A DNA stretch of 62,861 bases. Origin: a virus. Both the position numbers and the translations under genes were made by a program. The stretch covers positions 1 to 62,861 of the IMG/VR virus record IMGVR_UViG_3300034069_000992. One strand, written 5' to 3'. A model generated the notes under the pieces. The model was not told the DNA's origin. It did not search any database and saw nothing but the letters and a program-made list of their open reading frames with translations. Of this stretch, positions 16,593 to 34,025 are shown one piece after another (within the stretch, counting starts at the first letter, position 1; the number at the start of each line of letters is the position of its first letter).

Positions 16593-16843
16593 CCGAGCGC
16601 ACATGCAAAACATGCGAGTATGCAGTTCCCCGCTATGATGGATCTGGCCGGCGGTTCTGCAACGGTCCACACCGATATCGCTTCAGCGACGTGCGCGGCG
16701 GATACACCGATCCGACGAACTGCGAATACGAGCGCTGGAGTTTCTGGCGCTGGTTGGGATTTGATACGTGCGGGCCGAGCGGCCGATACTGGTTGAAGGC
16801 CGCTGTACGCATCCCGCCGAAGGTCTCTGCTCGCGATGAGTGA
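16589..16843 (+). CDS. Cys-rich hypothetical protein
   Basis: ATGA coupling; MTERTCKTCEYAVP... Confidence 0.5.
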   Translation: MTERTCKTCEYAVPRYDGSGRRFCNGPHRYRFSDVRGGYTDPTNCEYERWSFWRWLGFDTCGPSGRYWLKAAVRIPPKVSARDE

Positions 16844-17243
16844 GCACAGATCATGGGGGTGCTGGGCGTGCGGCGATAAGAGCGCGCTGTGGCGCATGAA
16901 CCGGACGGGCAAGGCGGGCATCTTCGCCTGCGCCAAGCATCTTGATCGCACGAAATGCGCGATCGACGGCTGCACCCGATCCTGCAAGCGCGAGGATGGC
17001 CGTCCGTGGGAATGGATCTGCTCCGTGCACTGGCGGCGCTATTGCCCGCCGCGCTCGCTTCGCCGCCGCGCCTACCTGGCGTTCTTCCGCAAGGCAAAGC
17101 GCTATGGCTGGAGTGAGCGTCTCTCCGCGCAATACTGGCGCTTCTGGGATACACTCACCCGCTCCGCCAACGTGATCGAGTCGGCCGGCTCAATCGACAC
17201 GTCAGAAATCAACAAGATGTTTGGATGGAACGATGACACCTGA
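16836..17243 (+). CDS. Cys-rich hypothetical protein
   Basis: 135-aa ORF, multiple CxxC/CxxxC pairs. Confidence 0.5.
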   Translation: MSEHRSWGCWACGDKSALWRMNRTGKAGIFACAKHLDRTKCAIDGCTRSCKREDGRPWEWICSVHWRRYCPPRSLRRRAYLAFFRKAKRYGWSERLSAQYWRFWDTLTRSANVIESAGSIDTSEINKMFGWNDDT

Positions 17244-17604
17244 GAAATATGCCGCTGTGATCTCCAGCTTGTTGCGGACGGCGCGCTTGCGCTCGAGCAA
17301 CGAAGCCGCGCTCCAGCTATCCCTCGAAGAGACCCTCACGGCGGCCAATATCGAATTCGAGCGTGAGAAGGCGATCGATAAGCGCGATCGTCCCGACTTC
17401 CTGCTCGCCGGCGGCGGCGTGGTGATCGAGGCGAAGGCCCGGTACGGCAAGAAGGCGATCTACCGGCAACTCTGCCGCTATGCCGAGCACGACTCGGTCT
17501 TTGCCATCATCCTCGTCACTGGAACGGCCATGGGCATGCCCGAAGAGATCAACGGCAAGCCAGTGCACGTCGTTTCGATCGGTTTGGGGACGCTCGGATG
17601 CTGA
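17221..17604 (+). CDS. VRR-NUC / PD-(D/E)xK nuclease-like protein
   Basis: DRPDFLLAGGGVVIEAKARYGK fits D...ExK; precedes an SNF2 helicase, as commonly seen in phages. Confidence 0.5.
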   Translation: MDGTMTPEKYAAVISSLLRTARLRSSNEAALQLSLEETLTAANIEFEREKAIDKRDRPDFLLAGGGVVIEAKARYGKKAIYRQLCRYAEHDSVFAIILVTGTAMGMPEEINGKPVHVVSIGLGTLGC

Positions 17605-19430
17605 AAACCTACGGGAAGGTGCTGCTGGAGGTTGGGCGGAACGCAAGATGGCATATCAAGGATCTGTCACCGCACGTCGCGGTGGCGTTCAAGCGTCTGT
17701 TCCCCCGTGTCGATCAGTATGCGACCGAGTTCTTCATTAGCGACAGCGACGATGCCAGGGCCGATCTTTACTGGTTCATGAGCAGATATCCGCTCGAAAC
17801 GGTGCACCTCGCGCGGCTGAAGGCCGGCGCCAACGCCGTCAGAGATCGAATCGCGCGTCGCGGCGAGATCTTGAGCCCCGATTGGAAGCCGGATGCGACC
17901 AAGGGCATCCGCGAGGGCGAGGCGCCGTACATCTACCAGAGCCAGGCGGCCACCATAGCCGTTGGACAGGGCGGGTTGCTGCTCGCCGACGACGTGGGCC
18001 TGGGCAAGACGGAAGGCGCGCTCACGGCGCTCGCCACCGGCGCCCCTATGCCCGCTGGCGTCGTGGTGCAGGCGCATCTCGCCTATCAGTGGCAGCAGCG
18101 GATCGAGAAGTTCACCACCTTTACCGCGCACGTCATCAACGGCACGACACCGTACTCCCTGCCGCCGGCCGACGTGTATATCTTCCGCTACACCAACATC
18201 GGCGGCTGGATCGACTTCCTGAAAAACGGATTACTGAAATCGGTAATTTACGACGAGATCCAGGAACTCCGGACCGGGACTGAGACGGCGAAAGGCCGGT
18301 GCTGCTCAATCGTCAGCGCGCAGTCGAAGTTCAAGATGGGGCTCACCGCCACCGCCACGTACAATTACGGCGATGAGATCCACACGGTGATGGAATTTCT
18401 CAATCCGGATCTGCTCGGCGAGCGGGAAGAGTTCCTACGCGAGTGGTGCTCTGCCGGCAGGATCGTGAAGCAGCCCGATGCGCTCGGCGAGTTCCTGAAG
18501 GAAACGGGATGGATGCTCCGACGCGACGAGAACGATCCAAACGTGCAGCAGTCGATGCCGAAGCCGAACATCATCCCGATCGAGGTCGACTGGAACGACA
18601 ACGACGTAGAGGACGAGTCGGAGTTGATCCGCAAGCTGGCGATGCGCGTCATGGGCGGCAGCTTCCACGGTTCCGGCAGTGCGTCTCGCGAACTCGATAT
18701 ACGCATGCGCCAGATGACCGGGGTCGCCAAGGCGCGATCGGTGGCGGCCTATGTAAAGATGCTGCTTCAGGACAATGAGCGCGTGATCCTCACCGGCTGG
18801 CATCGCGAGGTCTATGCGATCTGGTACAAGGCGCTGGCACCCTATCGGCCGGTCTTTTACACCGGGACTGAGGACGGCGGGCGCAAGCAGATCTCCATCA
18901 ACAACTTCACCGTTGGCCGCAGTCGCGTCTTCATCCTCTCCAACCGCTCCGGCGCCGGCATCGACGGCCTACAGCACTATTGCTGGGAGACGGTGGTGGG
19001 TGAGTTGGATTGGTCGCCGCAGATCCATAAGCAGATCATCGGCCGCACCCGCCGCCCCGGGCAAAAGCACCAGGTCAACGCGCACTTCCCTTACGTCACG
19101 CAAGGCTCCGATCCGGTGCTTATGGAGATCAACGCCATCAAGAGCGATCAGGCCCGCGGCATCCATGATCCGGGCATCGTGCAGGAGGCGCGGCTTACCG
19201 AAACCAGCCGAGTGAAGCGCCTGGCGCAGTATGTGCTCGATCAGGAAGCCCCGGAGGACACAGGATGCGCGATATGTGGCGGTCCGAGCACGGGACAGCC
19301 GCTCAACATCGTTCCGCTCGCACATGCCGACCGATATCAGGCCGGATCGGAGCGCGAGGCGCTATTCGGCCCCGAAAACATCTGGTTTCTGTGCCGATTG
19401 CACCAGGAAGAAGAGGCGCAGGCCGCTTAG
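17598..19430 (+). CDS. SNF2-family helicase
   Basis: LLADDVGLGKT (motif I), VIYDEIQELR (motif II), ILSNRSGAGIDGLQ...IIGRTRRPGQ (helicase C). Confidence 0.88.
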   Translation: MLKTYGKVLLEVGRNARWHIKDLSPHVAVAFKRLFPRVDQYATEFFISDSDDARADLYWFMSRYPLETVHLARLKAGANAVRDRIARRGEILSPDWKPDATKGIREGEAPYIYQSQAATIAVGQGGLLLADDVGLGKTEGALTALATGAPMPAGVVVQAHLAYQWQQRIEKFTTFTAHVINGTTPYSLPPADVYIFRYTNIGGWIDFLKNGLLKSVIYDEIQELRTGTETAKGRCCSIVSAQSKFKMGLTATATYNYGDEIHTVMEFLNPDLLGEREEFLREWCSAGRIVKQPDALGEFLKETGWMLRRDENDPNVQQSMPKPNIIPIEVDWNDNDVEDESELIRKLAMRVMGGSFHGSGSASRELDIRMRQMTGVAKARSVAAYVKMLLQDNERVILTGWHREVYAIWYKALAPYRPVFYTGTEDGGRKQISINNFTVGRSRVFILSNRSGAGIDGLQHYCWETVVGELDWSPQIHKQIIGRTRRPGQKHQVNAHFPYVTQGSDPVLMEINAIKSDQARGIHDPGIVQEARLTETSRVKRLAQYVLDQEAPEDTGCAICGGPSTGQPLNIVPLAHADRYQAGSEREALFGPENIWFLCRLHQEEEAQAA

Positions 19431-21160
19431 ACGGTGGCGATTGCCACCGAAACGACGTCTGTATCGCCATCGTCGAAGGTGGCGATACAGCGCACCAGCG
19501 CCTCTTGAGGCGTGCCCCCACGCACCCGAACCGACGCCAGCAGGCCATCCCACGTCGGATCTACCAGTTCCAAGCCGCCATCGGGCTGGAAAACCACCTT
19601 CACGATCGCCCGGCCTTCCGAAAAGTCAGTGAGATCGACGCCGTAGCGCCGTGACGTCTCCGGAGCACGATCAGGCCAGCGCAGTTCCATGATTGCCCCT
19701 CTCTTGGGTGTGACGATGCGCGTAGGCGTAGCAGGCGCATAGACGATGCGCGAGACAGCGGCCGGGCGGACGATGAAGTCGTCGTACGCCGGCGGCCGAG
19801 ATGCCCCGACGTCGAACAGAGCCGCCAATCCGGCGAAACTGAAGATCCCAGGCTCGCCAGCCAGCCGGCGGCTGAGCAAAAGGCCCGCGCCTACCGATGC
19901 AAGGGCGAAAGCGGCCGCTCCAGCGCCGAATCGACGGTAACGGGGGAAGGAAGCGGGCTTTCCGCTGGTCGAAAAGATGCCGGAAGAGGCTAGAAAACGG
20001 TGTCCGAAGGCCAGATTTGCGGCCGATACGACCACGAGAAACGCCCCGGTGGACGCCATAAGGGACCGCGCGCCGATCTTTGTGAGCGCAACAGGCATAC
20101 CGTTGAGGGCAAATGAGCCCTTGGAAGCCCCGATACTGCGGTTCAATCCGAGGTTTATAGCCTGCCCGACGAAGCTAAAATCGCTTTTTCCGGCTGGGAG
20201 AAGGTGCCCGGTAAGCAGATTTACGGCTTTGCCCAGGAGCGAATAGCTGCCCGGCGCTGCGGTAAGTAAGCGCGATCCTCGCAATACAACCTGGTTGCCT
20301 GTTAGCCCGTACGCGCCAGCCGAGATTGGCATGGCGTATCCGCGCAGCAGGTTGGCCCCGACACCTGATAGTTGGAACGCGCCCGTCTGCGCTGAGATCG
20401 TCGTTCCTGCCGATGCTCCAGTCGTCGGCGCGGCCGACTTATATGGGTGCGCATCCGGCAGCAGGGATTGCATACCCCACTTCCAAGCAAGATAGCCTTC
20501 AAGCTTCTGCCGATCGCTGTCCGACAGGATGTAGTTGAAGACGAGGCTTTCTTGGATGAAACCGGTGAGAAAGTACTTCTCAACCGCGCCGCGGCCGAAG
20601 GTAAAGCTGTAGGCTGTCGGTGTATTATACGACAGCGTGCCGGTTTCCATTGAACCGCCATCGATATAGCCGGTTACGGCACCGGCATTAAGACCGAAGA
20701 CGTTTACGACACCTAGCGCGTCATTATTGAAGTTGCGTGCTGACGCAACTCCGCTGCCAAGAACTTCCCAGGTCGTCGTATAATAGGCATCAATGCCCCG
20801 GGTGGAGCCATTTACCTTGCCGCCATATTCCACGTAGCGGCCGCCACTGGCTTTGCCGACCACCGCCATCATCGACGGGGCGCTTGATCCTGTTGAGAGA
20901 CCTGAAGAAGCGCCGTAACCCGCCGAAAGGATTTGGCCTCCGGCGAATTGCAACGCCGGAAGCCCGTTCAATCCCGTAGGCGAGTAGGTCGGTAAGCTGG
21001 TGGTGACGGTGCCGTTAGAAAAGGTTGTCTGCCAGCTTCCCTTGTTAGCGATCGAATTTACGTGCGAACCATCGGCGTTCATCACGATCGTCGACGCATC
21101 GGAGACGTCCACCCATACTACGGGCGGAACGGCTAGGCTGGCAGGCGTCCAGAGTGCCAT
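19427..21160 (-). CDS. Tail fibre protein: N-terminal LamG/ConA-like lectin domain, about nine 22-aa repeats, C-terminal domain
   Basis: RQKLEGYLAWKWG motif closing a LamG-like domain. Repeats GAFQLSGVGANLLRG / GAYGLTGNQVVLRGS / GSYSLLGKAVNLLTG / SDFSFVGQAINLGLN ... (DNA about 19800-20370). Confidence 0.65.
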   Translation of the reverse strand: MALWTPASLAVPPVVWVDVSDASTIVMNADGSHVNSIANKGSWQTTFSNGTVTTSLPTYSPTGLNGLPALQFAGGQILSAGYGASSGLSTGSSAPSMMAVVGKASGGRYVEYGGKVNGSTRGIDAYYTTTWEVLGSGVASARNFNNDALGVVNVFGLNAGAVTGYIDGGSMETGTLSYNTPTAYSFTFGRGAVEKYFLTGFIQESLVFNYILSDSDRQKLEGYLAWKWGMQSLLPDAHPYKSAAPTTGASAGTTISAQTGAFQLSGVGANLLRGYAMPISAGAYGLTGNQVVLRGSRLLTAAPGSYSLLGKAVNLLTGHLLPAGKSDFSFVGQAINLGLNRSIGASKGSFALNGMPVALTKIGARSLMASTGAFLVVVSAANLAFGHRFLASSGIFSTSGKPASFPRYRRFGAGAAAFALASVGAGLLLSRRLAGEPGIFSFAGLAALFDVGASRPPAYDDFIVRPAAVSRIVYAPATPTRIVTPKRGAIMELRWPDRAPETSRRYGVDLTDFSEGRAIVKVVFQPDGGLELVDPTWDGLLASVRVRGGTPQEALVRCIATFDDGDTDVVSVAIATV

Positions 21161-21399
21161 TATTCGAGGCTGGTACGGCCGCCGAGTGCCCGGGCGATCA
21201 GCCCGCGCTCCTGATCGATGTCGAAGAGGCCGGCTTCAGCGGCGCGGATCTCGTCGTCGAGCGCCTCCATCTGCGTCTGCGCATTGACTGAAACTTCGTC
21301 GCGCTGCTCGCGCAGTGGTGTCGACTGTCCGAGGATCGAATCACGCTGCTCGCCAAGTTCGGCGAAGCGCGCGCGCAATGCTTCTGGTGTCATATCCAT
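21160..21399 (-). CDS. Small coiled-coil protein (fibre-associated)
   Basis: 79-aa ORF; stop/start overlap with the fibre gene. Confidence 0.5.
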   Translation of the reverse strand: MDMTPEALRARFAELGEQRDSILGQSTPLREQRDEVSVNAQTQMEALDDEIRAAEAGLFDIDQERGLIARALGGRTSLE

Positions 21400-21411
21400 C
21401 GGTGCAGATCC

Positions 21412-21864
21412 TTACGAGAGGGTGAGGACGCCGTTGGCGTCGTCGAAGTCGGCCGTCAACGTCTCGCCCGACGCGAGAGTGAACGATGCGCCATAATCCC
21501 ACCAGCCGATCAGGCCGCCGGACGTGGCGTTGTAGAGCACCGCGTAACGTGCCGGTCCGATCGATCCGCCCGACGCGCTGATGACGGTATCGGCGAGCGT
21601 CAGCTTGTAGATCCCGTTGGTTTGGGCCGACGAACTGACTGTCGTTTGCGGGCCGCCGGCAACATAGCCATTGCCTGCTGCGATTTCGGCGATATCAGCT
21701 TTCACCGCGTTGGTGCGTACCGGCAAGGTGTTAGTCAGCATCAAGCGCAGCGTATCCGATGCAAGGTTATGCTGCTTCTCGGCGACGGCCTTCACGAAGG
21801 CGTCGAATTTATTAAATGCGGCCACGGCAACGATCTCCATCAAGGGCTCGCCCGCAATTATCAC
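21412..21864 (-). CDS. Hypothetical structural protein (start 21840 or 21864)
   Basis: 150-aa ORF, first gene of the isolated minus-strand fibre unit. Confidence 0.5.
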   Translation of the reverse strand: MIIAGEPLMEIVAVAAFNKFDAFVKAVAEKQHNLASDTLRLMLTNTLPVRTNAVKADIAEIAAGNGYVAGGPQTTVSSSAQTNGIYKLTLADTVISASGGSIGPARYAVLYNATSGGLIGWWDYGASFTLASGETLTADFDDANGVLTLS

Positions 21865-22078
21865 ATCGATTTGCCGTTGTCGTTTCGCATAATTCTCGAA
21901 AATCTCGATGTGACCAATTCAGCGGTCCACAACCGCTATGGCCGAAGGGGTCGGAAAGAAGGACCCGGACCCCGGGGGGGGTGCATATGTCCGCGCCCGC
22001 GCACCCGTACCTGTGCGCCCGCGTGCAAGGACTCGCGCGCCAATCTCCAGCCCGGCGCGAGCGCGCGCAGCGTGCTTC

Positions 22079-22097
22079 ATTCGCAATATTTGCGAAT
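22079..22097. promoter_or_regulatory. Perfect 19-bp palindrome (candidate operator) abutting a candidate -35 TTGCAA
   Basis: ATTCGCAA-TAT-TTGCGAAT at 22079-22097. TTGCAA at 22102-22107 and CATTTA 17 nt downstream; about 80 nt upstream of the first ORF of the ribozyme-containing operon. Confidence 0.45.
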
Positions 22098-22185
22098 TGT
22101 GTTGCAACCTCCGATCAACTGGCGCATTTAGACCATGCCAGCACCGGGAAGCCCGAGTCGCCACGGCAGAAACGAAGGAACTACG

Positions 22186-22434
22186 ATGACACTCGACACC
22201 ATCGACAGCACCGAACTAGCGCGCCGCTTCGCGCTCAACCCTTTTAACCTTGGCGGCATTGCCAACGCCCCACGCCTGAGCGCCCACGACTTCAGCGCCG
22301 CGTGCTTCGAGGCTCAAGGCCGCGCCGCCTATCCGCATGGCCGTAACCCTTACAACGCTGGCACCATGGCTAACACGCGTTGGGCGCGCGGTTGGCATCA
22401 GGCCGATGATGCCACGATCGCAAAGGAGGCTTGA
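22186..22434 (+). CDS. Rmf/CrpP-like small protein
   Basis: GAAGGA SD. GRAAYPHGRNPYNAGTMANTRWARGW resembles the RMF/CrpP G..G....PY.....W..GW pattern. Confidence 0.45.
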   Translation: MTLDTIDSTELARRFALNPFNLGGIANAPRLSAHDFSAACFEAQGRAAYPHGRNPYNAGTMANTRWARGWHQADDATIAKEA

Positions 22435-22437
22435 GCG

Positions 22438-22680
22438 ATGCGCCACTATTTCACCGATGCGATCGCCTACACCAAGCCGGAGCCGCATCATCGCCTTTGC
22501 CTTCAGTTTGACGCGGTGACACTTCAGCAACGCGGCAAAGACAATTTCGCTGTGCGCTACGGCAAGCAAGTTGATGCAGATGCTACATATGCGGAAGCGT
22601 GTGCACTGTTAGGCGCGGCCTTGATGCATCAAGCCGCATGTGGGGGCCTGTTAGACAATCGAGAGAAAGGCGAACGCTAA
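22438..22680 (+). CDS. Hypothetical protein
   Basis: 80-aa ORF 3 nt after the upstream stop; its TAA is followed immediately by hammerhead 1. Confidence 0.55.
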   Translation: MRHYFTDAIAYTKPEPHHRLCLQFDAVTLQQRGKDNFAVRYGKQVDADATYAEACALLGAALMHQAACGGLLDNREKGER

Positions 22681-22736
22681 GGCGAAACGGGGCGCACGCC
22701 CCGTCCGCTAGGCTGGCATCCTAGCGCTGATGAGCC
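22681..22736 (+). ncRNA. Type II hammerhead self-cleaving ribozyme (HHR-1)
   Basis: GGC-GAAA-[CGGGGC GCAC GCCCCG]-UC|-[CGCUAGG CUGGCAU CCUAGCG]-CUGAUGA-GCC. Full conserved core, GUC cleavage triplet; predicted cut between 22705 and 22706. Confidence 0.88.
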
Positions 22737-22759
22737 TGCCACGAATGAAAGAACACACG

Positions 22760-22990
22760 ATGCCCGTATCCCTCGCCAAGTCGGTTGACCTGTCCAAGCG
22801 CACCGCACCCGCACCCGTGATCGTGTGCACCGTTGACATGGGCGCACGCCCCGCCCGCATCGATCGCAAGCGCGCACCTAGCGCCAAGGCTCGCACCGTG
22901 TCGCGCCGTACCGCACGCCGCATGAAGTTGACCGCCGCCTTCCTCGCGTTCGCCTTCCCTGCGGACCTCTCCGCCTTCGCTGCCCGCTGA
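22760..22990 (+). CDS. Hypothetical basic protein
   Basis: ATG 22760, about 24 nt after HHR-1; low-complexity, coding status less certain. Confidence 0.4.
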   Translation: MPVSLAKSVDLSKRTAPAPVIVCTVDMGARPARIDRKRAPSAKARTVSRRTARRMKLTAAFLAFAFPADLSAFAAR

Positions 22991-23005
22991 TCTGGAGCCG
23001 ATACG

Positions 23006-23617
23006 ATGTCTGATTTCACCACCCTTTCCGTTCCCGCAGATGCCACGCCAGCGGACAAGGTGCGCGCCGCGTGCAATGCGCTCGGCCTTACGATCCGCGC
23101 CGAGTTCGTGCCCTTTAGCAAGTCGCGCAATGCGAAGCCCCGCGACGGGCAGGACAAGCCGTGGCGTTCGCTGAACTGGAACATCACGCTTGAGCGCAAC
23201 GGGCGCGACGTGATGACGACGGAATACAGCGCTGGCGAAGGCAATTGCCCCGCGTCCAAACTGCCAGCAACCGCGCTCCGCCGCGCGCAATATACCGATG
23301 CGACGGCGCGCCGGATGGCCGTAGACCATGAAATCGAAACCGGGCGGGAAGCGCGGTTTACCTTCGGCGGATACCTCAAGCAAAATGGTCCGCAGATACA
23401 GCCGGACGCGCCAAGCGTGATTATGTCGCTAGTGCTGGACTCGTCCGTGCTGGATGCTGGCAGCTTCGAGGATTGGGCGGCGGAATACGGTTACGATACC
23501 GATAGCCGTTCGGCGGAGCGCACCTATCAGGCGTGTTTAAAAACCGCGTTGAAGCTGCGCGCCGCGATTGGTGAAGTCGGGCTGGAATTGCTCCGCGCTG
23601 CCGGGGAGGATTTCTGA
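23006..23617 (+). CDS. Hypothetical protein
   Basis: 203-aa ORF with protein-like composition. Confidence 0.6.
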   Translation: MSDFTTLSVPADATPADKVRAACNALGLTIRAEFVPFSKSRNAKPRDGQDKPWRSLNWNITLERNGRDVMTTEYSAGEGNCPASKLPATALRRAQYTDATARRMAVDHEIETGREARFTFGGYLKQNGPQIQPDAPSVIMSLVLDSSVLDAGSFEDWAAEYGYDTDSRSAERTYQACLKTALKLRAAIGEVGLELLRAAGEDF

Positions 23618-23817
23618 TGGCTAAGAAATCCGGCTTCAATCTGTCGTTCGACGTTCGCAATGCGGCTTTTGACGACGGCAACCGGCCATACGAAGCCGCG
23701 CGCATCCTTCGCGAAATCGCCGATAAATTAGAGGCTCAAGCCTATGTGGGTGGCGGCCACGTCCGCGATGTGAACGGCAACACGATAGGCCATTGGGAGA
23801 TGACACCAACCGCATAG
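23617..23817 (+). CDS. Hypothetical protein
   Basis: 66-aa ORF, TGATG coupling; its TAG overlaps the first base of HHR-2. Confidence 0.55.
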   Translation: MAKKSGFNLSFDVRNAAFDDGNRPYEAARILREIADKLEAQAYVGGGHVRDVNGNTIGHWEMTPTA

Positions 23818-23879
23818 GCGAAACGCTCCGCCACCGTGCGGGGCGTCCAACCGGATCGGGAACCGGTTGCTGATGAGCC
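23817..23879 (+). ncRNA. Type II hammerhead self-cleaving ribozyme (HHR-2)
   Basis: GGC-GAAA-[CGCUCCGC CACCGU GCGGGGCG]-UC|-[CAACCGG AUCGGGAA CCGGUUG]-CUGAUGA-GCC; predicted cut between 23847 and 23848. Confidence 0.88.
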
Positions 23880-23903
23880 AGCCCTAGAAACGAAGGATTG
23901 CAC

Positions 23904-24227
23904 ATGCGCTATTTTGTCACCGTCACGCGCGACACCACGGAAAGCACGGTTATCACCGTTGACGCCGCAAACATGACAGCCGCGCGCGACGTCGCGATTG
24001 AGAAGGCCCGGAACGAAGCTGGCGCCTATAATTGGGTTCCGGACGATTGCACCGGTGGCGATCCGTATTTGGCTGATCCCGATGAGAAATTGCAGACAGC
24101 GGACGACGACGCGGACGACGACGCTTGCGGGCAATGCGATGGCACCGGCACCACCGACGCAATGGGGCGCGTAGAGCAATGCCCGGTCTGCGACGGTACC
24201 GGCACCCTCCAGACCGGCGAAATCTGA
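23904..24227 (+). CDS. Small protein with DnaJ-type CxxCxGxG zinc-finger pair
   Basis: CGQCDGTGT...CPVCDGTGT; ATG 23904 preceded by the GAAACGAAGGA leader. Confidence 0.6.
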   Translation: MRYFVTVTRDTTESTVITVDAANMTAARDVAIEKARNEAGAYNWVPDDCTGGDPYLADPDEKLQTADDDADDDACGQCDGTGTTDAMGRVEQCPVCDGTGTLQTGEI

Positions 24228-24230
24228 ACC

Positions 24231-24332
24231 ATGCTCTACAACCTCGCCGCCGCCGCTCAATATGCCTTTTTCGCCTTTGCTGGAGCCGTCGCGATTTACG
24301 CGATCGTCCGCACAATCAAGGATGCCCGCTAA
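24231..24332 (+). CDS. 33-aa predicted membrane peptide
   Basis: Read by eye (below the track cutoff): MLYNLAAAAQYAFFAFAGAVAIYAIVRTIKDAR; TAATG coupling to the next ORF. Confidence 0.4.
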   Translation: MLYNLAAAAQYAFFAFAGAVAIYAIVRTIKDAR

Positions 24333-24532
24333 TGCGCCTTTACCGCCTGATTGTGACAGAGCCGGCTCTGGGCGTAGTGAAGCGCGAGCGCTTCAACGCC
24401 GCTACCGATCTCGCCGCCGAACGCATCGCCGGGGATGCTTGGAACGCACCCTATTCGATCGCTGAACCGGGCCGCTATCGCCTGAAGCTGTACCGCAGCG
24501 GGGAACGCCGCCCGTTCCACACGATAGGCTAA
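24332..24532 (+). CDS. Hypothetical protein
   Basis: MRLYRLIVTEPALGVVKRERF... (C-terminal part of track ORF 24125..24532); stop 2 nt before HHR-3. Confidence 0.5.
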   Translation: MRLYRLIVTEPALGVVKRERFNAATDLAAERIAGDAWNAPYSIAEPGRYRLKLYRSGERRPFHTIG

Positions 24533-24534
24533 TT

Positions 24535-24596
24535 GCCGAAACGCCGCGCCTTGCGCGTGGCGTCCACCGGAACCGTCCACCCGGTGCTGATGAGGC
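24535..24596 (+). ncRNA. Type II hammerhead self-cleaving ribozyme (HHR-3)
   Basis: GCC-GAAA-[CGCCGCGC CUUGC GCGUGGCG]-UC|-[CACCGG AACCGUCCAC CCGGUG]-CUGAUGA-GGC. Stem II is swapped (GCC/GGC) relative to HHR-1/2; predicted cut between 24564 and 24565. Confidence 0.88.
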
Positions 24597-24617
24597 AGGA
24601 CACGAAACGAAGGAACG

Positions 24618-25538
24618 ATGATGCTGAACCTGTTCGATCACACGCAAGGCTTGCCCTACACCGCTGAGAAGCCCCGCGCCGCCGATGCGCACGAAATCCG
24701 CGCCTATCTGGAATGGCTGGCGGCGGTGCGTGGCATCACGATCCCCGCTGATGCCCGCTTCTATACGGCAGGCATTTGGACGGGCACCGGGGAGGATGCG
24801 CGGTGCGTAATGGATATGCCCGGCTATGGCGTCACCGATACGGGCACGATGGAAACGCTAGACGAGGATGGCGAAGTGATCCGCAAGGTTCCGCTCGCCA
24901 CCGACAAAAAGGGCAAGCTAGTGCTTACCGCTGCACAGATTGCCACCGCCTGCGCATTGCCCAAGGTTCGCAAAGCCCGAAAGGCCGCTGCAAAGCCCGT
25001 AGAGCGCGCCGAACCGGTTTCGACTACGTCCGCACCATCCGACGACGTTGTGGCGCTGCTGGCGCGCGTGGCGGCGCTGGAATCGGCAATGCGCACCGTT
25101 GGGCTTGCTGTCACCACCGCGAAGCCGGTTGCAGCTAACGACGATGCCGCGCCGCCGCGCCGCACTGAGCGCGAGCGCGCCGCCATCCTGCGGGCGTGGC
25201 GTATGCGGCGCGAGATGCGCGAGCGGGCGGACCTAGACCGGCGCGCGCTTGAGGCGGCGAACGTCTGGGCGCGCGCTGAAGTGGCGCGAGTTGGCGAAGC
25301 ACTGGAACAAGCCGCCAATGCCCGCACCGCCGCCACCGCCTACAAATCGGAGATGGAAGCCGCATGCATCCGCGCCGATCGCACTGAAGCCGATTTGCGT
25401 GGGGCGCGTGCTGAAGCGGCGGCGCTGGTGCGCAAGCTGGAGCAATCCCGCTCTGCCACCGTCACGCGGCGCGCGCTGCCTATTCCCATGCCTGTCGCCA
25501 CCGCGCTCCCCCGCGTGCTTGTGGGAGCGACACGATGA
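24618..25538 (+). CDS. Hypothetical protein with C-terminal coiled coil
   Basis: 306-aa ORF, GAAACGAAGGAA leader. Confidence 0.6.
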   Translation: MMLNLFDHTQGLPYTAEKPRAADAHEIRAYLEWLAAVRGITIPADARFYTAGIWTGTGEDARCVMDMPGYGVTDTGTMETLDEDGEVIRKVPLATDKKGKLVLTAAQIATACALPKVRKARKAAAKPVERAEPVSTTSAPSDDVVALLARVAALESAMRTVGLAVTTAKPVAANDDAAPPRRTERERAAILRAWRMRREMRERADLDRRALEAANVWARAEVARVGEALEQAANARTAATAYKSEMEAACIRADRTEADLRGARAEAAALVRKLEQSRSATVTRRALPIPMPVATALPRVLVGATR

Positions 25539-25918
25539 TCCGCCGCCCCAAGGGTCTCGACCATGACTCGCACATGGTTCTCAACGTCTATGAATGTGAT
25601 TGCGGCAATAGCTGGGAAGATACCTGGGATTGCGGTTGCGATGACGAGTGCGGGGAATGTGGCGCGGATGTCTCCCCATCTTCTAGCGAGGATGATCCAG
25701 ATTGCGACTGCGCGGATTGCCGTAACAAGCTTGTGCATCATTCTTCGCGGGCATGGTCGCGCGATGCTGACGGCTGGTGGTGCCGCCCGTTCTATCGCAA
25801 GGATGCGATAACGCTGGCGTTCTGCAATGACAGTCACGTCTTCAAGATGGATGGCCGGCTTTACTGCCGCAACGCGAAACAGAAACGCGTTCTTGATAAC
25901 GGGCGCCCCGTACGATGA
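25535..25918 (+). CDS. Cys-rich hypothetical protein
   Basis: 127 aa, CDCG...CGCDDECGECG...CDCADC; ATGA coupling. Confidence 0.55.
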   Translation: MIRRPKGLDHDSHMVLNVYECDCGNSWEDTWDCGCDDECGECGADVSPSSSEDDPDCDCADCRNKLVHHSSRAWSRDADGWWCRPFYRKDAITLAFCNDSHVFKMDGRLYCRNAKQKRVLDNGRPVR

Positions 25919-26085
25919 GCGCGGAACGCATCGACGCCGCCGCCCGCCGCCTGATCCGCGCCGCGAAAGAGATGCTTGACGCATACGGCGGAGACACTCC
26001 CGATTGGCTCCAGTCTGAGGCGATGCGGCTGGATGCCGCCGTCGATGAGATGGACGAAGCACTCAACACGAAGGAAGCACGATGA
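25915..26085 (+). CDS. 56-aa hypothetical protein
   Basis: Read by eye: MSAERIDAAARRLIRAAKEMLDAYGG...; ATGA overlaps at both ends. Confidence 0.45.
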   Translation: MSAERIDAAARRLIRAAKEMLDAYGGDTPDWLQSEAMRLDAAVDEMDEALNTKEAR

Positions 26086-26615
26086 ACCCGAACGATATTG
26101 ATCTGACCAACGCACAGCTTGCCGCCACCGCTACCAGTGAAGGCGACGGGCGCGAACGGTTCACCGTGCTGAACGTGTGGTACGTGCCCGACCATTCCCG
26201 CCCGTGGGTTGCTGAAGCGCTGGGCGTGTCCACGCTGCCCGGTGAGGTGACAAAGACGCGGCGGCTGGCGTCGGCATCGCTTGAGCGGGCAATGCGCTTG
26301 CTCGACGATAGCGATCTGGGCGTGATCGTGAAGGAAGGCGCGCGCGAGTGGGCACAGGAGCATGGGGCTCCGGTCCTGCCGCGCGGTGGGCTGTCCGCCG
26401 CGTGCGATCGCGAGGCACTGGCATTGCTCTTCGGCGTTGGGATCGAGGCGGTGTCTATCAGCGCCGCCGCCGTGGCGTTCAACATGGGCGAGTCCACCTT
26501 GCGCATGTCGATGAAGGATGGGCGCGATATCCGCGTGCCGCTCCGCCGCCTGCTGCCCTATCTCGACCGCGCCGCCTTCCGCCGCGACTTCGGTGCGGAG
26601 GTGTCCCGTGGATGA
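26082..26615 (+). CDS. Hypothetical protein
   Basis: 177-aa ORF. Confidence 0.55.
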   Translation: MNPNDIDLTNAQLAATATSEGDGRERFTVLNVWYVPDHSRPWVAEALGVSTLPGEVTKTRRLASASLERAMRLLDDSDLGVIVKEGAREWAQEHGAPVLPRGGLSAACDREALALLFGVGIEAVSISAAAVAFNMGESTLRMSMKDGRDIRVPLRRLLPYLDRAAFRRDFGAEVSRG

Positions 26616-26835
26616 GATGGTTTTTGAGATCGAAACCGGTGGCGGTGTAGTCATCTCGATCGAGCACCCATTCGGCGGGGCTGTAACCACTTACAAAGCG
26701 AGTGCGCCAGCCGCCCCGGAATACGTGGTTGCCCGCCGCAAGATGCTCATCGCCGCCGCTAAAGTTCTCGATGCCGCCACCGCCGTAGAACTGAACTGGT
26801 TGCTCGACGTGAAATTGGAGAACGCCCGTGCTTAA
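26608..26835 (+). CDS. Hypothetical protein (GTG 26608 or ATG 26617)
   Basis: C-terminal part of track ORF 26518..26835; start chosen by coupling to the upstream stop. Confidence 0.45.
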   Translation: MDEMVFEIETGGGVVISIEHPFGGAVTTYKASAPAAPEYVVARRKMLIAAAKVLDAATAVELNWLLDVKLENARA

Positions 26836-27784
26836 CTGGAGCCGCCTTGTGGGCCTGATCGCGCCCGACAACCGCAGCGCTGTGGAAGCCGCGCCGCCGC
26901 CGCAACCCATCCGCGTTATCCCAGGCGGACCCAACGCACCCGAACTGTGCATGCTGAGCGTGGAGTGGGATGGTCTCGACGCCGCCGTGCTCGCTGAACA
27001 GGAGTCCGGCGTTCCCGACGTGTGGCTGGCACAGGTCAAAATGGATGGCATCAACGCGATCTACATCGATGGCTGCATCGTCGGCGGCCGTGAGGGGGCA
27101 CCGCTCGATTGCGCTCTGCAATGCCAGCCCGGCTTGGCTCGGCTGGAGAAGGCGCTGGGCGAGCCTTACGTCTTCTTTGGCGAGTATGTCGCCAAGGATG
27201 GCTTCAACGCCACGCTGTCCGAGAACCGCAAGCGCGTCGGTGATGGCGTGTTCTGGATCTATGACGCCGTGCCCTTCCGTGAGTGGGCCACCGGGCGGGA
27301 TTACGCCACCGCGATCGAACTGCGCCTGACGCTGCTGCGCGATGCGTTCCAGCAAGCCGACACCGGCGCGTTCGTCGGCTTCCTCAACTTCTGGATGCTC
27401 AACGCCGCCGAGATGCGCGCCAAGGCGCACGAGGTGTGGGCCGCCGGTTATGAGGGGCTGGTGAAGAAGCGCGTGGGCTCGCCGTTTGTGCGCCGCCGCT
27501 CGCAGGACTGGCACAAGGTCAAGCAGCGCTTCAGCGCGCCGTGCGCAGTGATCGACACCATCCACAAGAACGGCAAGCTGCACCGTGTGATCGTGCGCGG
27601 GCCGGAGCCATCCGGTTCCAAGCCGATCACGCTCGCCGGCGGCTGGAGCGATGCTGAAGCCGAGTCGATCGACATCGGCATGGCTGAAGGCTCGCAAGGC
27701 CGCATCGTGAAGGTTGAGTTTGAACTGACTGTTTCCACCCCGCGCACCGTGCGTGCGCCTAAGTTCAAAGGATTGCTGGCATGA
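26828..27784 (+). CDS. ATP-dependent DNA ligase (minimal, nucleotidyltransferase + OB)
   Basis: Motif I VKMDG, motif III FFGEYV, motif IV WIYDAV, motif V EGLVKK. Confidence 0.8.
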   Translation: MLNWSRLVGLIAPDNRSAVEAAPPPQPIRVIPGGPNAPELCMLSVEWDGLDAAVLAEQESGVPDVWLAQVKMDGINAIYIDGCIVGGREGAPLDCALQCQPGLARLEKALGEPYVFFGEYVAKDGFNATLSENRKRVGDGVFWIYDAVPFREWATGRDYATAIELRLTLLRDAFQQADTGAFVGFLNFWMLNAAEMRAKAHEVWAAGYEGLVKKRVGSPFVRRRSQDWHKVKQRFSAPCAVIDTIHKNGKLHRVIVRGPEPSGSKPITLAGGWSDAEAESIDIGMAEGSQGRIVKVEFELTVSTPRTVRAPKFKGLLA

Positions 27785-27939
27785 GCAAGGTTTCTGGTCT
27801 CGCCGCCGACGGCGCTGCATGGTGGTCGCTCTTCATGATCGTGCTGTTCTGCTCGCTCCCGCTGATCGCGCACCCGCTCATCAACGCGCTGGCGTGGCTG
27901 CTCGATGGTCTCGACAGCTTCGGCGCGGGGTGGTGGTGA
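27781..27939 (+). CDS. 52-aa predicted membrane protein
   Basis: Read by eye: MSKVSGLAADGAAWWSLFMIVLFCSLPLIAHPLINALAWLLDG...; ATGA coupling. Confidence 0.45.
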   Translation: MSKVSGLAADGAAWWSLFMIVLFCSLPLIAHPLINALAWLLDGLDSFGAGWW

Positions 27940-28154
27940 TGAGCCTCGCAACCGATCCCCGCTTTTGGCCGTCCGTCCGCCGAATCCTGCGCTACCGACA
28001 GGATCTGCGCGACGCGCGGCGTGACGGCTTCGTGGAGGTGCGAGCGTTCGCGCCCCTGCCATGGCTGTCTCCGAGTAGCGGCAACCGCATCATCGCTACC
28101 CGCGTGAACCGCGATGGCACCGCGCTCTTCGTCAAAGTTGAAAGGATAGTTTGA
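27939..28154 (+). CDS. Hypothetical protein
   Basis: MSLATDPRFWPSVRRILRYRQDL...; TGATG coupling. Confidence 0.5.
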   Translation: MSLATDPRFWPSVRRILRYRQDLRDARRDGFVEVRAFAPLPWLSPSSGNRIIATRVNRDGTALFVKVERIV

Positions 28155-28441
28155 TGACGATGCCCATTCACATCGTCCGCGATATCGGCAACAAATGCAG
28201 TGACGACGTCGCTGCTGCCATCTCCCGCAACATGCATCTGGTGGACACACCGAAGGACGCCAGCAGCGTAGCATTTTTCGGGGCTGCATCAGCATTGGGC
28301 GCGGCATCCGGGGCGTTCCTGGCGACACAGCCGATGAACGGGGGTGGCATGCCCGCCGATGTGCTGGCGGCGGCGCTGTGGAGCATCCTTCAGCCGATGG
28401 TTGTGGGCAGCATCGAGCGCATACAGGAGAGGAAAGCGTAA
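28151..28441 (+). CDS. Hypothetical protein
   Basis: 96-aa ORF. Confidence 0.5.
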   Translation: MMTMPIHIVRDIGNKCSDDVAAAISRNMHLVDTPKDASSVAFFGAASALGAASGAFLATQPMNGGGMPADVLAAALWSILQPMVVGSIERIQERKA

Positions 28442-28788
28442 TGGATCACATCCCAAGCAATAAATCAGCCAGCTTCGTTGATACGAGCGCCGACGATTAT
28501 ATGCCGCGCGCGCACTTCGCGCCGCATACGACGCACGACGAAGGCGGCTTTCACATCGTGCACCCTGCGGGCTCTCTGAAGATCGGGACGTTGCACGATC
28601 GCGATAACGATCGCCCGGTGCCGATCATCCGCGTGGATCACGTCGGCGGCCCCACCTCGCTTCTGTTCGTCCCCAACGCGCAGGAGATGCGCCTGTTCGC
28701 CACCGCCATGACACAGATGGCCGACGAGATGGAAGCCGAAGCCGCCGATCTGCTCGCTGGTGCACTCAAGCGGAAGCCGGGCGCATGA
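28441..28788 (+). CDS. Hypothetical protein
   Basis: MDHIPSNKSASFVD...; TAATG coupling. Confidence 0.5.
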   Translation: MDHIPSNKSASFVDTSADDYMPRAHFAPHTTHDEGGFHIVHPAGSLKIGTLHDRDNDRPVPIIRVDHVGGPTSLLFVPNAQEMRLFATAMTQMADEMEAEAADLLAGALKRKPGA

Positions 28789-28961
28789 AGTGGGAGCAGG
28801 CCACCTTCCTAGCGTTCGGTGTGGCGGTGCTGGTGGCGGGCATAGCCGGCATGATCGGCTGCTTCGTCTACCACCGCAGCGCATCTCTGTTCGGCTGCGC
28901 CTGTATGGTGATGGCCGGGGTAATCTTCATCGACGGGGCTCTGGGAGGTCCGGGTGCATGA
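28785..28961 (+). CDS. 58-aa predicted two-TM membrane protein
   Basis: Read by eye: MKWEQATFLAFGVAVLVAGIAGMIGCFVYH...CMVMAGVIFIDGAL. Confidence 0.45.
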   Translation: MKWEQATFLAFGVAVLVAGIAGMIGCFVYHRSASLFGCACMVMAGVIFIDGALGGPGA

Positions 28962-29227
28962 GCGATCATAAAGAGATCATCGGCATTGACGAGCATCGTT
29001 ACGTCGACACCTATCTGCGCAGCTATCCGGTCAAGGTTATGCAGCCGCGCGCGATGGTGATGCTCAACGTCGACAGCGGGGGACCGCCCGCGCCACCGCT
29101 TGAGCCTAATCGCATTGTGCGCACCGAACGCATCCTGCGCCTGCTCACGCTGCTGCAATCGAGCGATCCGCGGCAGCGGAAACGCGGGACTCGGTTGGCG
29201 ACCGATGCGCTGAAGAGGAAAAAGTAA
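28958..29227 (+). CDS. Hypothetical protein
   Basis: MSDHKEIIGIDEHRYVDTYL...; ATGA coupling. Confidence 0.5.
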   Translation: MSDHKEIIGIDEHRYVDTYLRSYPVKVMQPRAMVMLNVDSGGPPAPPLEPNRIVRTERILRLLTLLQSSDPRQRKRGTRLATDALKRKK

Positions 29228-29520
29228 TGGAAGATTTCCAACGCGAATTTCTCGCCGCGATCGCAGCCAGCTTGGCCGATCACGGCGAGGTAGTGATCGG
29301 ACTCGATCCCGCCTCCGGCCTTGACCAAGCGGCGATCATCGACTTGCATCGCACCATTATAGAGGGGGCGGGGCCGGAATACGTGCTGGTGCGTCACGAC
29401 GTGCTCGATAGGATAGACGAACTCCACGCAATGCACCTTGCACCGCCACCGTCGCGATATCGCGACTATCTTAAACACGATCCTACGAAGTCACACCGCC
29501 GCCGGCGGAACCGGCGCTAA
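29227..29520 (+). CDS. Hypothetical protein
   Basis: 97-aa ORF, TAATG coupling. Confidence 0.5.
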   Translation: MEDFQREFLAAIAASLADHGEVVIGLDPASGLDQAAIIDLHRTIIEGAGPEYVLVRHDVLDRIDELHAMHLAPPPSRYRDYLKHDPTKSHRRRRNRR

Positions 29521-29536
29521 TCGAAAGGCCACCGAT

Positions 29537-29821
29537 ATGAACCAGACAATCCCACCCACCCTTGGCGCCGGCGACACGATCGCGCTCGAATTCATGGATG
29601 TTCCCGTCAACATCGGGAAAGCGCGATCGCGCGCTGCTTGCGTGGCTATCACCGCCAGCCCCAACTCGCCGATCGGCCCTAAGGTTGTGCTGTCGGTCAA
29701 TGCGGCCGCGCCGGGGGAGGATCGGGCGCGCGCGCACGTGGCGCATCTGAGCGCGGAGGAAGCGATATGGCTCGCAGGCCGCTTGCTGTCCGCCGTTGCC
29801 GACCTGAGTGATCCACTATGA
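29537..29821 (+). CDS. Hypothetical protein
   Basis: MNQTIPPTLGAGDTIALEF...; AAAGG upstream. Confidence 0.5.
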   Translation: MNQTIPPTLGAGDTIALEFMDVPVNIGKARSRAACVAITASPNSPIGPKVVLSVNAAAPGEDRARAHVAHLSAEEAIWLAGRLLSAVADLSDPL

Positions 29822-30075
29822 GGGGCGACGATCGCGTTTCGCGCATGGCCGCCGTGCTGGTGATGGCCGCCGGCGGGAAGATCAGCATCGATCTGGATCT
29901 GATCGCCAACGCGCGCTTCATCCGCCTGCACCAGACGGACGATCCGCGCACCAACAAGGTGCACTACACCGCAACCTACGATCGCGAAGGGCAAGGCCCG
30001 ATCGTCGATAACGACGACGTGGTGATCGAGCACATGAAGATCCTGCCGAGCAACAAGGGGAGCCACACCCGATGA
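29818..30075 (+). CDS. Hypothetical protein
   Basis: 85-aa ORF, ATGA coupling. Confidence 0.5.
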   Translation: MRGDDRVSRMAAVLVMAAGGKISIDLDLIANARFIRLHQTDDPRTNKVHYTATYDREGQGPIVDNDDVVIEHMKILPSNKGSHTR

Positions 30076-30272
30076 CGCGCCACCGCACACAATTCGTCCG
30101 CGAGGGCTCCGGCTACAACTTCAACGGGCCGAAGGCGCGCGCGCTGAAGGGCAAGCTGTCTCTCGTTACCGCGCAGAACGCGAAGCGGGTGCCGTGCTCG
30201 ATCTGCGGCATCGGCATCCTGCCTGGCGCCATGCAGGCGCACACCGAAACCGTGCATGGAGATGACCAGTGA
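30072..30272 (+). CDS. Hypothetical protein
   Basis: 66-aa ORF, ATGA coupling. Confidence 0.5.
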   Translation: MTRHRTQFVREGSGYNFNGPKARALKGKLSLVTAQNAKRVPCSICGIGILPGAMQAHTETVHGDDQ

Positions 30273-30661
30273 GCGACAAGCGGCCGATTGACACGTCAAC
30301 CCTTGGTCCGATCAGGCTGGGGCAGCCGAACGCGATGGACAAAGCCCGAGAACTCTACGCCAGAGCGCTGGAAGATGCAGGTTGCGGCGGGTCGGCGTTT
30401 ATCCGCAAAGGGCACGGCAACATCTGGGTTGATCCTGCCTTAGCTGTGATCGCCACCCTGCTCAAGCAGGCGGAGGCCGCACCGGGAGTGGTGGAGGCGG
30501 TCAAGGCCGAGATCGAGCGACAGTGCAGCATCGGCGCGGGAACGTGTCAGCGTGATTCGGAAACAGGGCTGATCGAAGTTCACGCGGACATAGACGCCAA
30601 CGGGTTTGCAGCCGCTATGACCGAAGCCCTCGCCCGCCAGCATGGGGCGCAGGAACAGTGA
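30269..30661 (+). CDS. Hypothetical protein
   Basis: 130-aa ORF. Confidence 0.55.
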   Translation: MSDKRPIDTSTLGPIRLGQPNAMDKARELYARALEDAGCGGSAFIRKGHGNIWVDPALAVIATLLKQAEAAPGVVEAVKAEIERQCSIGAGTCQRDSETGLIEVHADIDANGFAAAMTEALARQHGAQEQ

Positions 30662-30912
30662 AGCGCATATTCTACGGGCTGGTGTGCGTGCAGGTATCTG
30701 CCCCCGGCAAGATTGACCAGCATAACGAGTGCTGGTTTGACGTTGCGTCCTCAAAGGATGAAGCGCTCGGCAGGTGGTCGAAACTGGCGCTGGCAAAGCA
30801 CTCAGGCGGTGTGATCGCTTGGATGGACGCCTACGACATTACGGACGCGGCGCGATCCGCTATTTCTATGATCGCCGCCGCCCCGGCAACCGATGCGGGG
30901 GAGGGGAACTGA
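30658..30912 (+). CDS. Hypothetical protein
   Basis: 84-aa ORF. Confidence 0.5.
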   Translation: MKRIFYGLVCVQVSAPGKIDQHNECWFDVASSKDEALGRWSKLALAKHSGGVIAWMDAYDITDAARSAISMIAAAPATDAGEGN

Positions 30913-30913
30913 C

Positions 30914-31024
30914 ATGCAATATCCCACAAAGCGCCTGGATGTTTGGAAGGTAGTGCTCATCGTCTCGATAAACGCCGCTCTATGCTCCTGCATCGTGATC
31001 GGCGCCTTGCGTGTTTTCACATAA
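30914..31024 (+). CDS. 36-aa predicted membrane peptide
   Basis: Read by eye: MQYPTKRLDVWKVVLIVSINAALCSCIVIGALRVFT; starts 1 nt after the upstream TGA. Confidence 0.35.
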   Translation: MQYPTKRLDVWKVVLIVSINAALCSCIVIGALRVFT

Positions 31025-31080
31025 CAATGGATAGGTGCGGGGCGTATCGGTGGCCCCTGCACTCCTTGGAGCGTAGGTCG

Positions 31081-31130
31081 ACACGCAAAGGGAAGGCCCG
31101 GTGGATCACTCCGCCGGGCCTTCTTCGTTT
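31081..31130. terminator. Bidirectional intrinsic terminator between the convergent plus block and the minus-strand late operon
   Basis: GAAGGCCCGG (31092-31101) / CCGGGCCTTC (31114-31123). Followed by TTCTTCGTTT on the plus strand and CCTTTGCGTGT on the minus strand. Confidence 0.75.
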
Positions 31131-31145
31131 CAGCAGTGGTGCAGA

Positions 31146-31388
31146 TCAGCCGCGGAGATGCGCCGCCGTCGATTCCACATGCGCCGTCACCTTCGCTTCG
31201 ATCGCATCACGCTCCTGTGCCAGCGGCACCGGGATCTTGCCGTCGAACAGATCCTTGGCATGGTCAATCGTCTCCACGATCTTCGAGCCAAGCGCGATCG
31301 CCTCAGGGGCACCGTGTCCGATGATCGGCGCGGCGGCTTGCGCCAGGTCGAGCAGGCTGTCGAGCAGCCCCATCTTCGGGTTTCCCAT
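31146..31388 (-). CDS. Hypothetical protein (last gene of the late operon)
   Basis: 80-aa ORF. Confidence 0.5.
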   Translation of the reverse strand: MGNPKMGLLDSLLDLAQAAAPIIGHGAPEAIALGSKIVETIDHAKDLFDGKIPVPLAQERDAIEAKVTAHVESTAAHLRG

Positions 31389-31389
31389 G

Positions 31390-31926
31390 TCAGTTCCCCT
31401 TCAGGGTGCCGAGCGCGGAACGGGCGCCGGCGAGTGCCGCCTTCGCCTGCTCTAGTGCTGCTCGGTAGTTTTCGGCCTGTCCCGCGCGTTGCGCCTGGCT
31501 GGCGATGCGCAGCCATTTGGAGGAACCCTCCAAGGCGTCGGCAAGACGTTTGGCGCCCACGGTGCCGGCAACGCTTGGCTTGGCCGCAAGCAATGCGTCG
31601 GCCGCGTAGGCAGCGGTGTCGAGCGCGTCATAGGCGACGGCGATCGCGGCGTCGTCGATCGTGGTCGATGCGAGCGGCGACACCGTGGAGATCGGCGGTA
31701 GCGTGGCGTCTGCGACGGCGGCCACAACCGATTCGCTGGTGGTGAGTGGAGGTGTCTGCTGACCGGCAGACGATGCGGCCGGCGAGGAACCCGGGCTGGC
31801 GACCCCGCCGGTTGGGCCGCAAGAGGATAAGCAGGCCGCCGCGGCGAGGCACAGCCATCCCCCGATATTGAATTGTCTCACGGATCTTCTCCGAAGCGCC
31901 GGGCGATTCGCCGGCAGCGCCATCAT
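31390..31926 (-). CDS. Lipoprotein downstream of the endolysin (possible spanin component)
   Basis: Signal peptide with lipobox WLCLAAAACLSS-C; the position next to the endolysin is the only functional hint. Confidence 0.5.
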   Translation of the reverse strand: MMALPANRPALRRRSVRQFNIGGWLCLAAAACLSSCGPTGGVASPGSSPAASSAGQQTPPLTTSESVVAAVADATLPPISTVSPLASTTIDDAAIAVAYDALDTAAYAADALLAAKPSVAGTVGAKRLADALEGSSKWLRIASQAQRAGQAENYRAALEQAKAALAGARSALGTLKGN

Positions 31927-31952
31927 GCGCGCCGCCGGCGATGCGCACCAGC

Positions 31953-34024: not shown

Positions 34025-34025
34025 G

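Follow-up and report, generated by a model that had tools for sequence, protein, structure and literature searches.

The window analysed here is a whole metagenome contig of 62,861 bp with the gene set of a tailed phage. Its minus strand carries genes for the large terminase, the portal, the major head protein and a tape measure protein of 1802 aa, and the window also encodes a DnaB-like helicase, a primase, an SNF2-type helicase and an ATP-dependent DNA ligase. The DNA ligase gene (26828-27784, plus strand) closes a same-strand run of small phage genes that opens with orf1 and extends from 22186 to 27784 on the plus strand. This run carries three ribozymes within about 2 kb, all of them on the plus strand, all intergenic and all in sense orientation to the genes. 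No terminator-like sites were found inside the orf1-to-ligase run, which fits a single long transcript.

The order of features, all on the plus strand, is as follows. The genes orf1 (22186-22434) and orf2 (22438-22680) are followed by a first type II hammerhead, HHR-a (22680-22744, predicted to be cut between 22705 and 22706). Next come orf3 (22760-22990), orf4 (23006-23617) and orf5 (23617-23817), then a second type II hammerhead, HHR-b (23816-23887, predicted cut between 23847 and 23848), and then orf6 (23904-24227), orf7 (24231-24332) and orf8 (24332-24532). The product of orf8 (66 aa) belongs to no known family, and its gene is the last in the block between HHR-b and the element studied here, HHR-c (24534-24601). 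Directly downstream of HHR-c lies orf9 (24618-25538), which encodes a protein of 306 aa, also without a known family. A ribosome-binding site, GAAACGAAGGA (24604-24614), and the ATG of orf9 (24618-24620) together form a module at 24604-24620. The GAAACGAAGGA module also precedes orf1 (22170-22180) and follows most hammerheads of the family described below. The products of orf1 to orf10 had no informative match in Pfam, PHROGs or NCBIfam. The orf6 product is a small acidic protein with two CxxCxGxG motifs, with weak matches to the DnaJ zinc finger and to anti-TRAP that fall below curated cut-offs.

HHR-c is about 68 nt long, and its Rfam alignment spans 24534-24604. On the plus strand these bases read UGCC GAAA CGCCGCGC-CUUGC-GCGUGGCG UC/CACCGG-AACCGUCCAC-CCGGUG CUGAUGA GGCA GGAC ACG, with the slash at the predicted cut; the string written out in the original prediction agrees with them exactly. 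The 5′ strand of stem II (U plus GCC, 24534-24537, with GCC at 24535-24537) pairs with a 3′ strand formed by GGC plus A (24594-24597, with GGC at 24594-24596), and the proposed extension of this stem to UGCC/GGCA is borne out by the pairing of U24534 with A24597. The conserved core segment GAAA (G12, A13, A14 and A15.1; 24538-24541) is without variation in 22 of 22 family members. The stem III hairpin (24541-24563) consists of an A-U pair plus CGCCGCGC/GCGUGGCG, 9 bp in all with one G-U, and is closed by the loop CUUGC (24550-24554). It runs into the cleavage triplet GUC (24562-24564), whose position relative to the core places the predicted scission between C24564 and C24565, the canonical site and the one named in the original prediction. 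Stem I, as folded, is a 6-bp hairpin, CACCGG/CCGGUG (24565-24586), with the 10-nt loop AACCGUCCAC at 24571-24580, and is followed by the second core segment, CUGAUGA (C3 to A9; 24587-24593). Beyond stem II, the 3′ tail GGAC (24598-24601) is complementary to GUCC of loop I (24575-24578) over 4 bp and would form a pseudoknot with it. The TAA of orf8 occupies 24530-24532 and GCC starts at 24535, so the element begins 2 nt after the stop codon, as had been noted. The end previously assigned to it, 24596, is too short, leaving out the functional pseudoknot strand GGAC; because of the loop I/tail pseudoknot, the element reaches 3′ to at least 24601.

All components of a hammerhead core are present, namely CUGAUGA, GAAA, the pair A24541-U24563 and a nucleotide other than G at H17 (C24564). 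The core is the same in all three elements of the window, as originally proposed: GAAA, GUC and CUGAUGA are identical in HHR-a, HHR-b and HHR-c. The helix order II(5′)-III-I-II(3′) was recovered in the Rfam alignment and in both the minimum free energy (MFE) and the centroid folds. For acceptance as a hammerhead we applied, after Perreault et al. (PMC3088659), the rule of canonical pairs at positions 10.1-11.1, 1.1-2.1 and 15.1-16.1; in HHR-c these core-adjacent pairs are G24594-C24537, C24565-G24586 and A24541-U24563, respectively. For 24534-24604, the MFE and centroid predictions both reproduce the three-way junction of a hammerhead exactly, at −29.5 kcal/mol and with a modest fold z-score of −1.69. 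The core motif is absent from the opposite strand at 24534-24604.

Covariance models, the search suggested in the original prediction, were then applied to the window. With Rfam 15 at gathering thresholds, three matches to Hammerhead_II (RF02276) and nothing else were obtained: 22680-22744 at 42.7 bits, 23816-23887 at 49.0 bits and 24534-24604 at 37.3 bits. The third match (E = 5.6e-4) clears the gathering score of 37 by just 0.3 bits and is therefore marginal. HHR-c shares with RF02276 (Perreault et al. 2011, PLoS Comput Biol 7:e1002031) the core, the capped stems I and III, the open stem II, a pseudoknot in which 4 bp or more join loop I to a tail just after stem II, and a bacterial or phage origin. 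It departs from the consensus in its longer loop I (about 10 nt), in the tail GGAC in place of AGCC and in the inverted middle pair of stem II, and these three differences account for a score at the threshold. A permissive E-value Rfam scan of the whole window revealed no further ribozyme of any class. Since the Rfam score was marginal, a separate covariance model was built from related loci.

Ten homologues of orf9 were found, on metagenome contigs of about 62 kb and in assemblies of Novosphingobium sp. KN65.2 and Sphingomonas panaciterrae; the sphingomonad assemblies among them indicate that the host of the phage is probably a sphingomonad. No close DNA relatives were detected among INPHARED phages by megablast with window positions 15000-35000, orf9 had no tblastn match in the phage collection, and searches of IMG/VR for related loci with orf9 and with the ligase found nothing. 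Eight related loci, L005 to L012, were compared, of which L006 duplicates L005, leaving seven distinct ones. Rfam reports 14 type II hammerheads in L005-L012, while a structural parse together with a custom model (R1) raises the count to 19 in the seven distinct loci, or 22 with the three of the window. Every one of the 22 is intergenic and lies on the coding strand, with a stop codon before it and a Shine-Dalgarno site after it. Of the 19 ribozymes of the distinct related loci, seven fail to reach the Rfam gathering score, among them both copies beside ardA in Novosphingobium, so standard annotation undercounts the hammerheads of this phage lineage.

An independent model (R2), made from hammerheads of the related loci only and without any sequence of the window, found exactly three hammerheads in the window, starting at 22680, 23816 and 24534, with scores of 70.3, 68.8 and 68.7 bits. 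The E-value of HHR-c was about 5e-17, and the next match in the window, which is not a hammerhead, scored 13.5 bits. The sequence CTGATGA taken alone occurs 8 times in the window against 8.3 expected, i.e. at the chance rate; the composite pattern GAAAC..GTH..CTGANGA, with 0.46 occurrences expected, is found 3 times, at the hammerhead sites and nowhere else. A chance resemblance to the hammerhead motif, for which the marginal Rfam score and nothing else speaks, is thus effectively refuted by the E-value obtained with the independent model, by compensatory changes in the orthologous copies (below) and by the occurrence of three copies in 2 kb, all sense and intergenic.

A pattern search for CTGATGA-N8-20-GAAACGAAGGA in IMG/VR and GTDB genomes gave almost exclusively non-specific matches. 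The sole true relative among them was L043 (IMGVR_UViG_3300028586_000003, a 64.7-kb contig), where an orthologue of HHR-a (524-596, 64.3 bits) is followed by a homologue of orf3 (MSVSLAKPVDL..). Occurrences of CTGATGA-N8-GAAACGAAGGA in L053, L056, L059, L062, L064, L071, L074, L079, L081, L091 and L121 were considered as a candidate RNA element and rejected as conserved coding sequence (..CGCHPNCG..ALMIDKETKE..). These loci belong to metagenome-assembled genomes of Acidobacteriota, Verrucomicrobiota and Sphingomonas, many of them Acidobacteriota. The coding origin of such matches calls for caution in searches for hammerheads by motif only.

Covariation was assessed in a model-guided alignment of the 22 ribozymes (20 distinct rows), which was used in place of a MAFFT alignment that was set aside because some of its rows were mis-registered. 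Standard pairs fill 99.4% of pair cells; shuffling the columns lowers this to 69.9%, and sliding the 3′ partners to 30-50%. Two-sided changes occur at 12 of the 16 pairs among the 22 hammerheads. The covariation score reaches 0.722; shuffles give 0.166 (none of 500 attained the observed value) and slid registers no more than 0.129. Being fitted to the structure, the alignment somewhat favours it, but this alone could not produce so large a contrast with slid registers. Stem III covaries in five of seven modelled pairs and stem I in all six.

The original prediction had described stem II of HHR-c, GCC/GGC instead of the GGC/GCC of the other two copies in the window, as a double compensatory change. 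The swap is real and recurs in the family; however, it affects both sides of one pair and not two pairs, since GCC/GGC and GGC/GCC differ only at the middle pair 10.2-11.2 (C-G to G-C). Across the family this middle pair is G-C in 14, C-G in five and U-A in one case. The GCC/GGC stem is retained in the orf9-adjacent copies of L005/L006, L008 and L009, and variants are found near the orf9 homologues of L010 (GUC/GAC), L007 (UGCC/U-GGCA) and L012 (CGGC/GCUG).

The pairing between loop I and the 3′ tail cannot be placed in alignment columns and was therefore scored in each sequence separately. In every family member, loop I can form 3-5 contiguous Watson-Crick pairs with the stretch of 10 nt that follows stem II, with the tail pairing starting 0-2 nt past the third stem II pair. 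When loops and tails were re-paired at random among members, none of 20000 permutations matched as well as the true loop/tail combinations. For HHR-c taken alone, a 4-bp loop/tail match has a chance of about 4.5%, and it is the family evidence that carries the pseudoknot. Within the window the pairing is UGGCA/UGCCA in HHR-a, GGG/CCC in HHR-b and GUCC/GGAC in HHR-c; it is GCCU/AGGC in the copies at the orf9 position of L005, L008 and L009, UGUCC/GGACA in the copy at or near orf9 in L010, and UGGCC/GGCCA in the copies at or near orf9 in L007 and L012. Type II hammerheads require the loop I/tail pseudoknot for fast cleavage at physiological Mg2+, and shortening it from 6 to 4 bp in one tested construct slowed cleavage about 20-fold (PMC3088659). 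Judging from these sequences, the pseudoknot of HHR-c is most likely the tertiary contact typical of type II hammerheads, aligning stems I and II.

The same data bear on the possibility that HHR-c is a decayed, catalytically dead copy, or that its GC-rich hairpins act solely as RNA stabilisers or as a terminator. Although the Rfam score is borderline and two stable hairpins are present, all core nucleotides are intact, the pairs that flank the core are canonical, the pseudoknot is kept and covaries in orthologues, and neither hairpin is followed by a U-run. We consider this reading very unlikely. The identification of 24534-24601 as a true type II hammerhead, supported by the core, the junction with an open stem II, the pseudoknot, the Rfam match and the covariation among relatives, agrees with the original prediction and can be held with high confidence.

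The position of the ribozymes is conserved as well. In four distinct relatives (L005/L006, L008, L009 and L012) the orf9 homologue is immediately preceded by a hammerhead; in L010 and L007 the hammerhead is one or two genes upstream. The layout of a hammerhead, the orf3-5 block, a hammerhead, variable genes, a hammerhead and orf9 is kept in L005, L008 and L009, whose proteins are 40-60% identical to those of the window. The flanking ribozymes, orf4, orf5, orf9, orf12 and the ligase are conserved among relatives, and no homologues of orf6, orf7 or orf8 were found in L005-L012; ribozymes b and c therefore bracket a variable cassette (23904-24532). Distant orf4 homologues in Xylella phage Sano, Xanthomonas phage FoX4 and two IMG/VR contigs (L001-L004) have no hammerhead detectable by Rfam or by the custom model, so the ribozymes are specific to the lineage and not tied to orf4.

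Several other conserved features of these loci were noted in passing. Very small hydrophobic ORFs of 28-33 aa (e.g. MLYNLAAAAQYAFFAFAGAVAIYAIVRTIKDAR) belong to the operon in the window (24231-24332) and fill gaps of about 80 nt in L008 (459-542), L009 (442-525), L005 (511-594) and L007 (3384-3464). The gaps of about 80 nt at the listed positions of L005, L007 and L008 had been considered as sites of unknown ribozymes and were rejected as such, being read as hydrophobic mini-ORFs of 28-30 aa. A non-coding region upstream of the operon is conserved between the window (21860-22185), L007 (2540-2872), L006 (2714-3020), L008 (1-270) and L010 (1-258). It holds a hairpin AGCGGTCC..CACCGCT, a block GGAAGGACCCGG with a G-run after it, and a perfect palindrome, TTCGCAA-N3-TTGCGAA (22079-22095 in the window), which looks like an operator; the shared Shine-Dalgarno sequence GAAACGAAGGA comes next.

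Clustered hammerheads flanking phage genes were already described in 2011, and HHR-c fits that known class. As in the alphaproteobacterial prophage clusters of Agrobacterium tumefaciens (a triple around ardA) and Azorhizobium caulinodans, the three type II hammerheads of the window are packed into about 2 kb, each intergenic and in sense orientation to small phage genes. Here, however, the lineage is another one, a tailed phage of about 62 kb, and the flanked genes differ. The Agrobacterium arrangement has a parallel in L011 (Novosphingobium sp. KN65.2, CCBH010000002.1), where an ArdA anti-restriction gene (4795-5484) is flanked by two hammerheads (4711-4780 and 5490-5568). The type II hammerheads of Desulfovibrio vulgaris likewise lie near hypothetical or phage-like genes; they occupy three dispersed loci, in contrast to the tandem operon arrangement of the window (PMC8782182).

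Activity of related elements is documented. Type II hammerheads cleave after H17 and leave a 2′,3′-cyclic phosphate and a 5′-OH, and the clustered type II hammerheads of Agrobacterium, Azorhizobium and Clostridium prophages all cleave, both in vitro and in E. coli (PMC3088659). Three predicted type II hammerheads of D. vulgaris were found by cyPhyRNA-seq to cleave in vivo (PMC8782182). On the strength of its sequence features we regard HHR-c as, in all likelihood, a functional self-cleaving type II hammerhead, the third of three in a polycistronic operon of a phage with a probable sphingomonad host, which would split the transcript into blocks.

The following course of events can be proposed. 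Once the element is transcribed, stems I and III would fold as hairpins, and its 5′ and 3′ ends would pair as stem II. Docking of the tail GGAC on GUCC of loop I would align stems I and II, and the core would catalyse transesterification after C24564, separating orf8 from orf9. The upstream RNA, cut one nucleotide past stem III, would have the 9-bp hairpin of that stem at its end and carry a 2′,3′-cyclic phosphate, and the downstream RNA would start with a 5′-OH inside the stem I hairpin, with the ribosome-binding site about 40 nt further on. Cuts at all three predicted sites (between 22705 and 22706, 23847 and 23848, and 24564 and 24565) would yield the blocks orf1-2, orf3-5, orf6-8 and orf9 onward, each of which would probably gain its own stability and expression level. 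Both kinds of product end are expected to slow decay, exonucleolytic as well as 5′-end-dependent, making block-specific stability possible. The motif, its fold, the covariation, the conserved position and the sense orientation are established by the analysis; catalysis in vivo and such a consequence for stability are inferred. A role in mRNA processing was proposed for phage-operon hammerheads by Perreault et al. 2011 (PMC3088659), and in keeping with it we suggest, with moderate confidence, that the role of HHR-c is the processing of a polycistronic early transcript into blocks.

An effect on translation through unmasking of the ribosome-binding site was considered and rejected for HHR-c on the basis of in silico folding. 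The probability of this site being unpaired is 0.66-0.68 before cleavage and 0.70 after it; with accessibility unchanged by cleavage, a translation effect is not supported.

Translation could instead act on the ribozyme. The upstream stop codon, the ribozyme and a ribosome-binding site resembling GAAACGAAGGA, which comes within a few nucleotides of the pseudoknot tail, form a compact module. Of the 22 hammerheads, 21 have the stop codon of the preceding gene either overlapping stem II or 0-2 nt away from it, and in the last one the distance is 7 nt. Termination at this codon would bring a ribosome onto the element that opens stem II and part of stem III, and cutting by a real ribozyme would then depend on the level of translation of the upstream gene; the type II topology, in which stem II can close only after the whole element has been made, is in line with such gating. 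On the other hand, stop codons this close could be no more than a result of how densely phage genes are packed, and fast hammerhead cleavage is possible whenever the site is free of ribosomes. The stop-ribozyme-start architecture thus allows gating by terminating ribosomes and does not demonstrate it, and we think it rather unlikely that cleavage is gated in this way.

A further alternative to simple mRNA processing is that cleavage is followed by ligation, through hammerhead reversal or RtcB, resulting in excision with circularisation or splicing. Segments between two cuts have ligatable 5′-OH and 2′,3′-cyclic phosphate ends, and Perreault et al. raised this possibility themselves, but they sought spliced or circular products and found none (PMC3088659). 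In addition, the stem II halves that would be brought together from HHR-b and HHR-c (GCC from each) cannot pair with each other, which rules out a chimeric ribozyme. This outcome therefore appears highly improbable for HHR-c, and processing of the mRNA into blocks remains the preferred reading.

Ribozyme positions are fixed among the relatives, yet each of them has other genes between ribozymes b and c, and this invites a broader interpretation. The succession of stop codon, hammerhead, pseudoknot tail and GAAACGAAGGA may be a conserved, portable cassette of intercistronic punctuation that marks the junctions at which gene cassettes are exchanged, with cleavage perhaps gated by ribosomes. We put this forward as a speculative proposal, with little probability attached to it. 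If it were true, the hammerheads would be expression insulators and recombination linkers of phage mosaicism.

Knowledge of the hammerhead itself is not changed by this example. What is mildly new is the lineage, that of a phage with relatives among the sequences of sphingomonad genomes, and the conservation in position of a three-ribozyme layout while the genes between its second and third members are replaced. The share of ribozymes in related loci that fall below the Rfam threshold is likewise mildly new and is of practical relevance for annotation. The clade of about 22 ribozymes in eight loci may offer a test system for what clustered phage hammerheads do.
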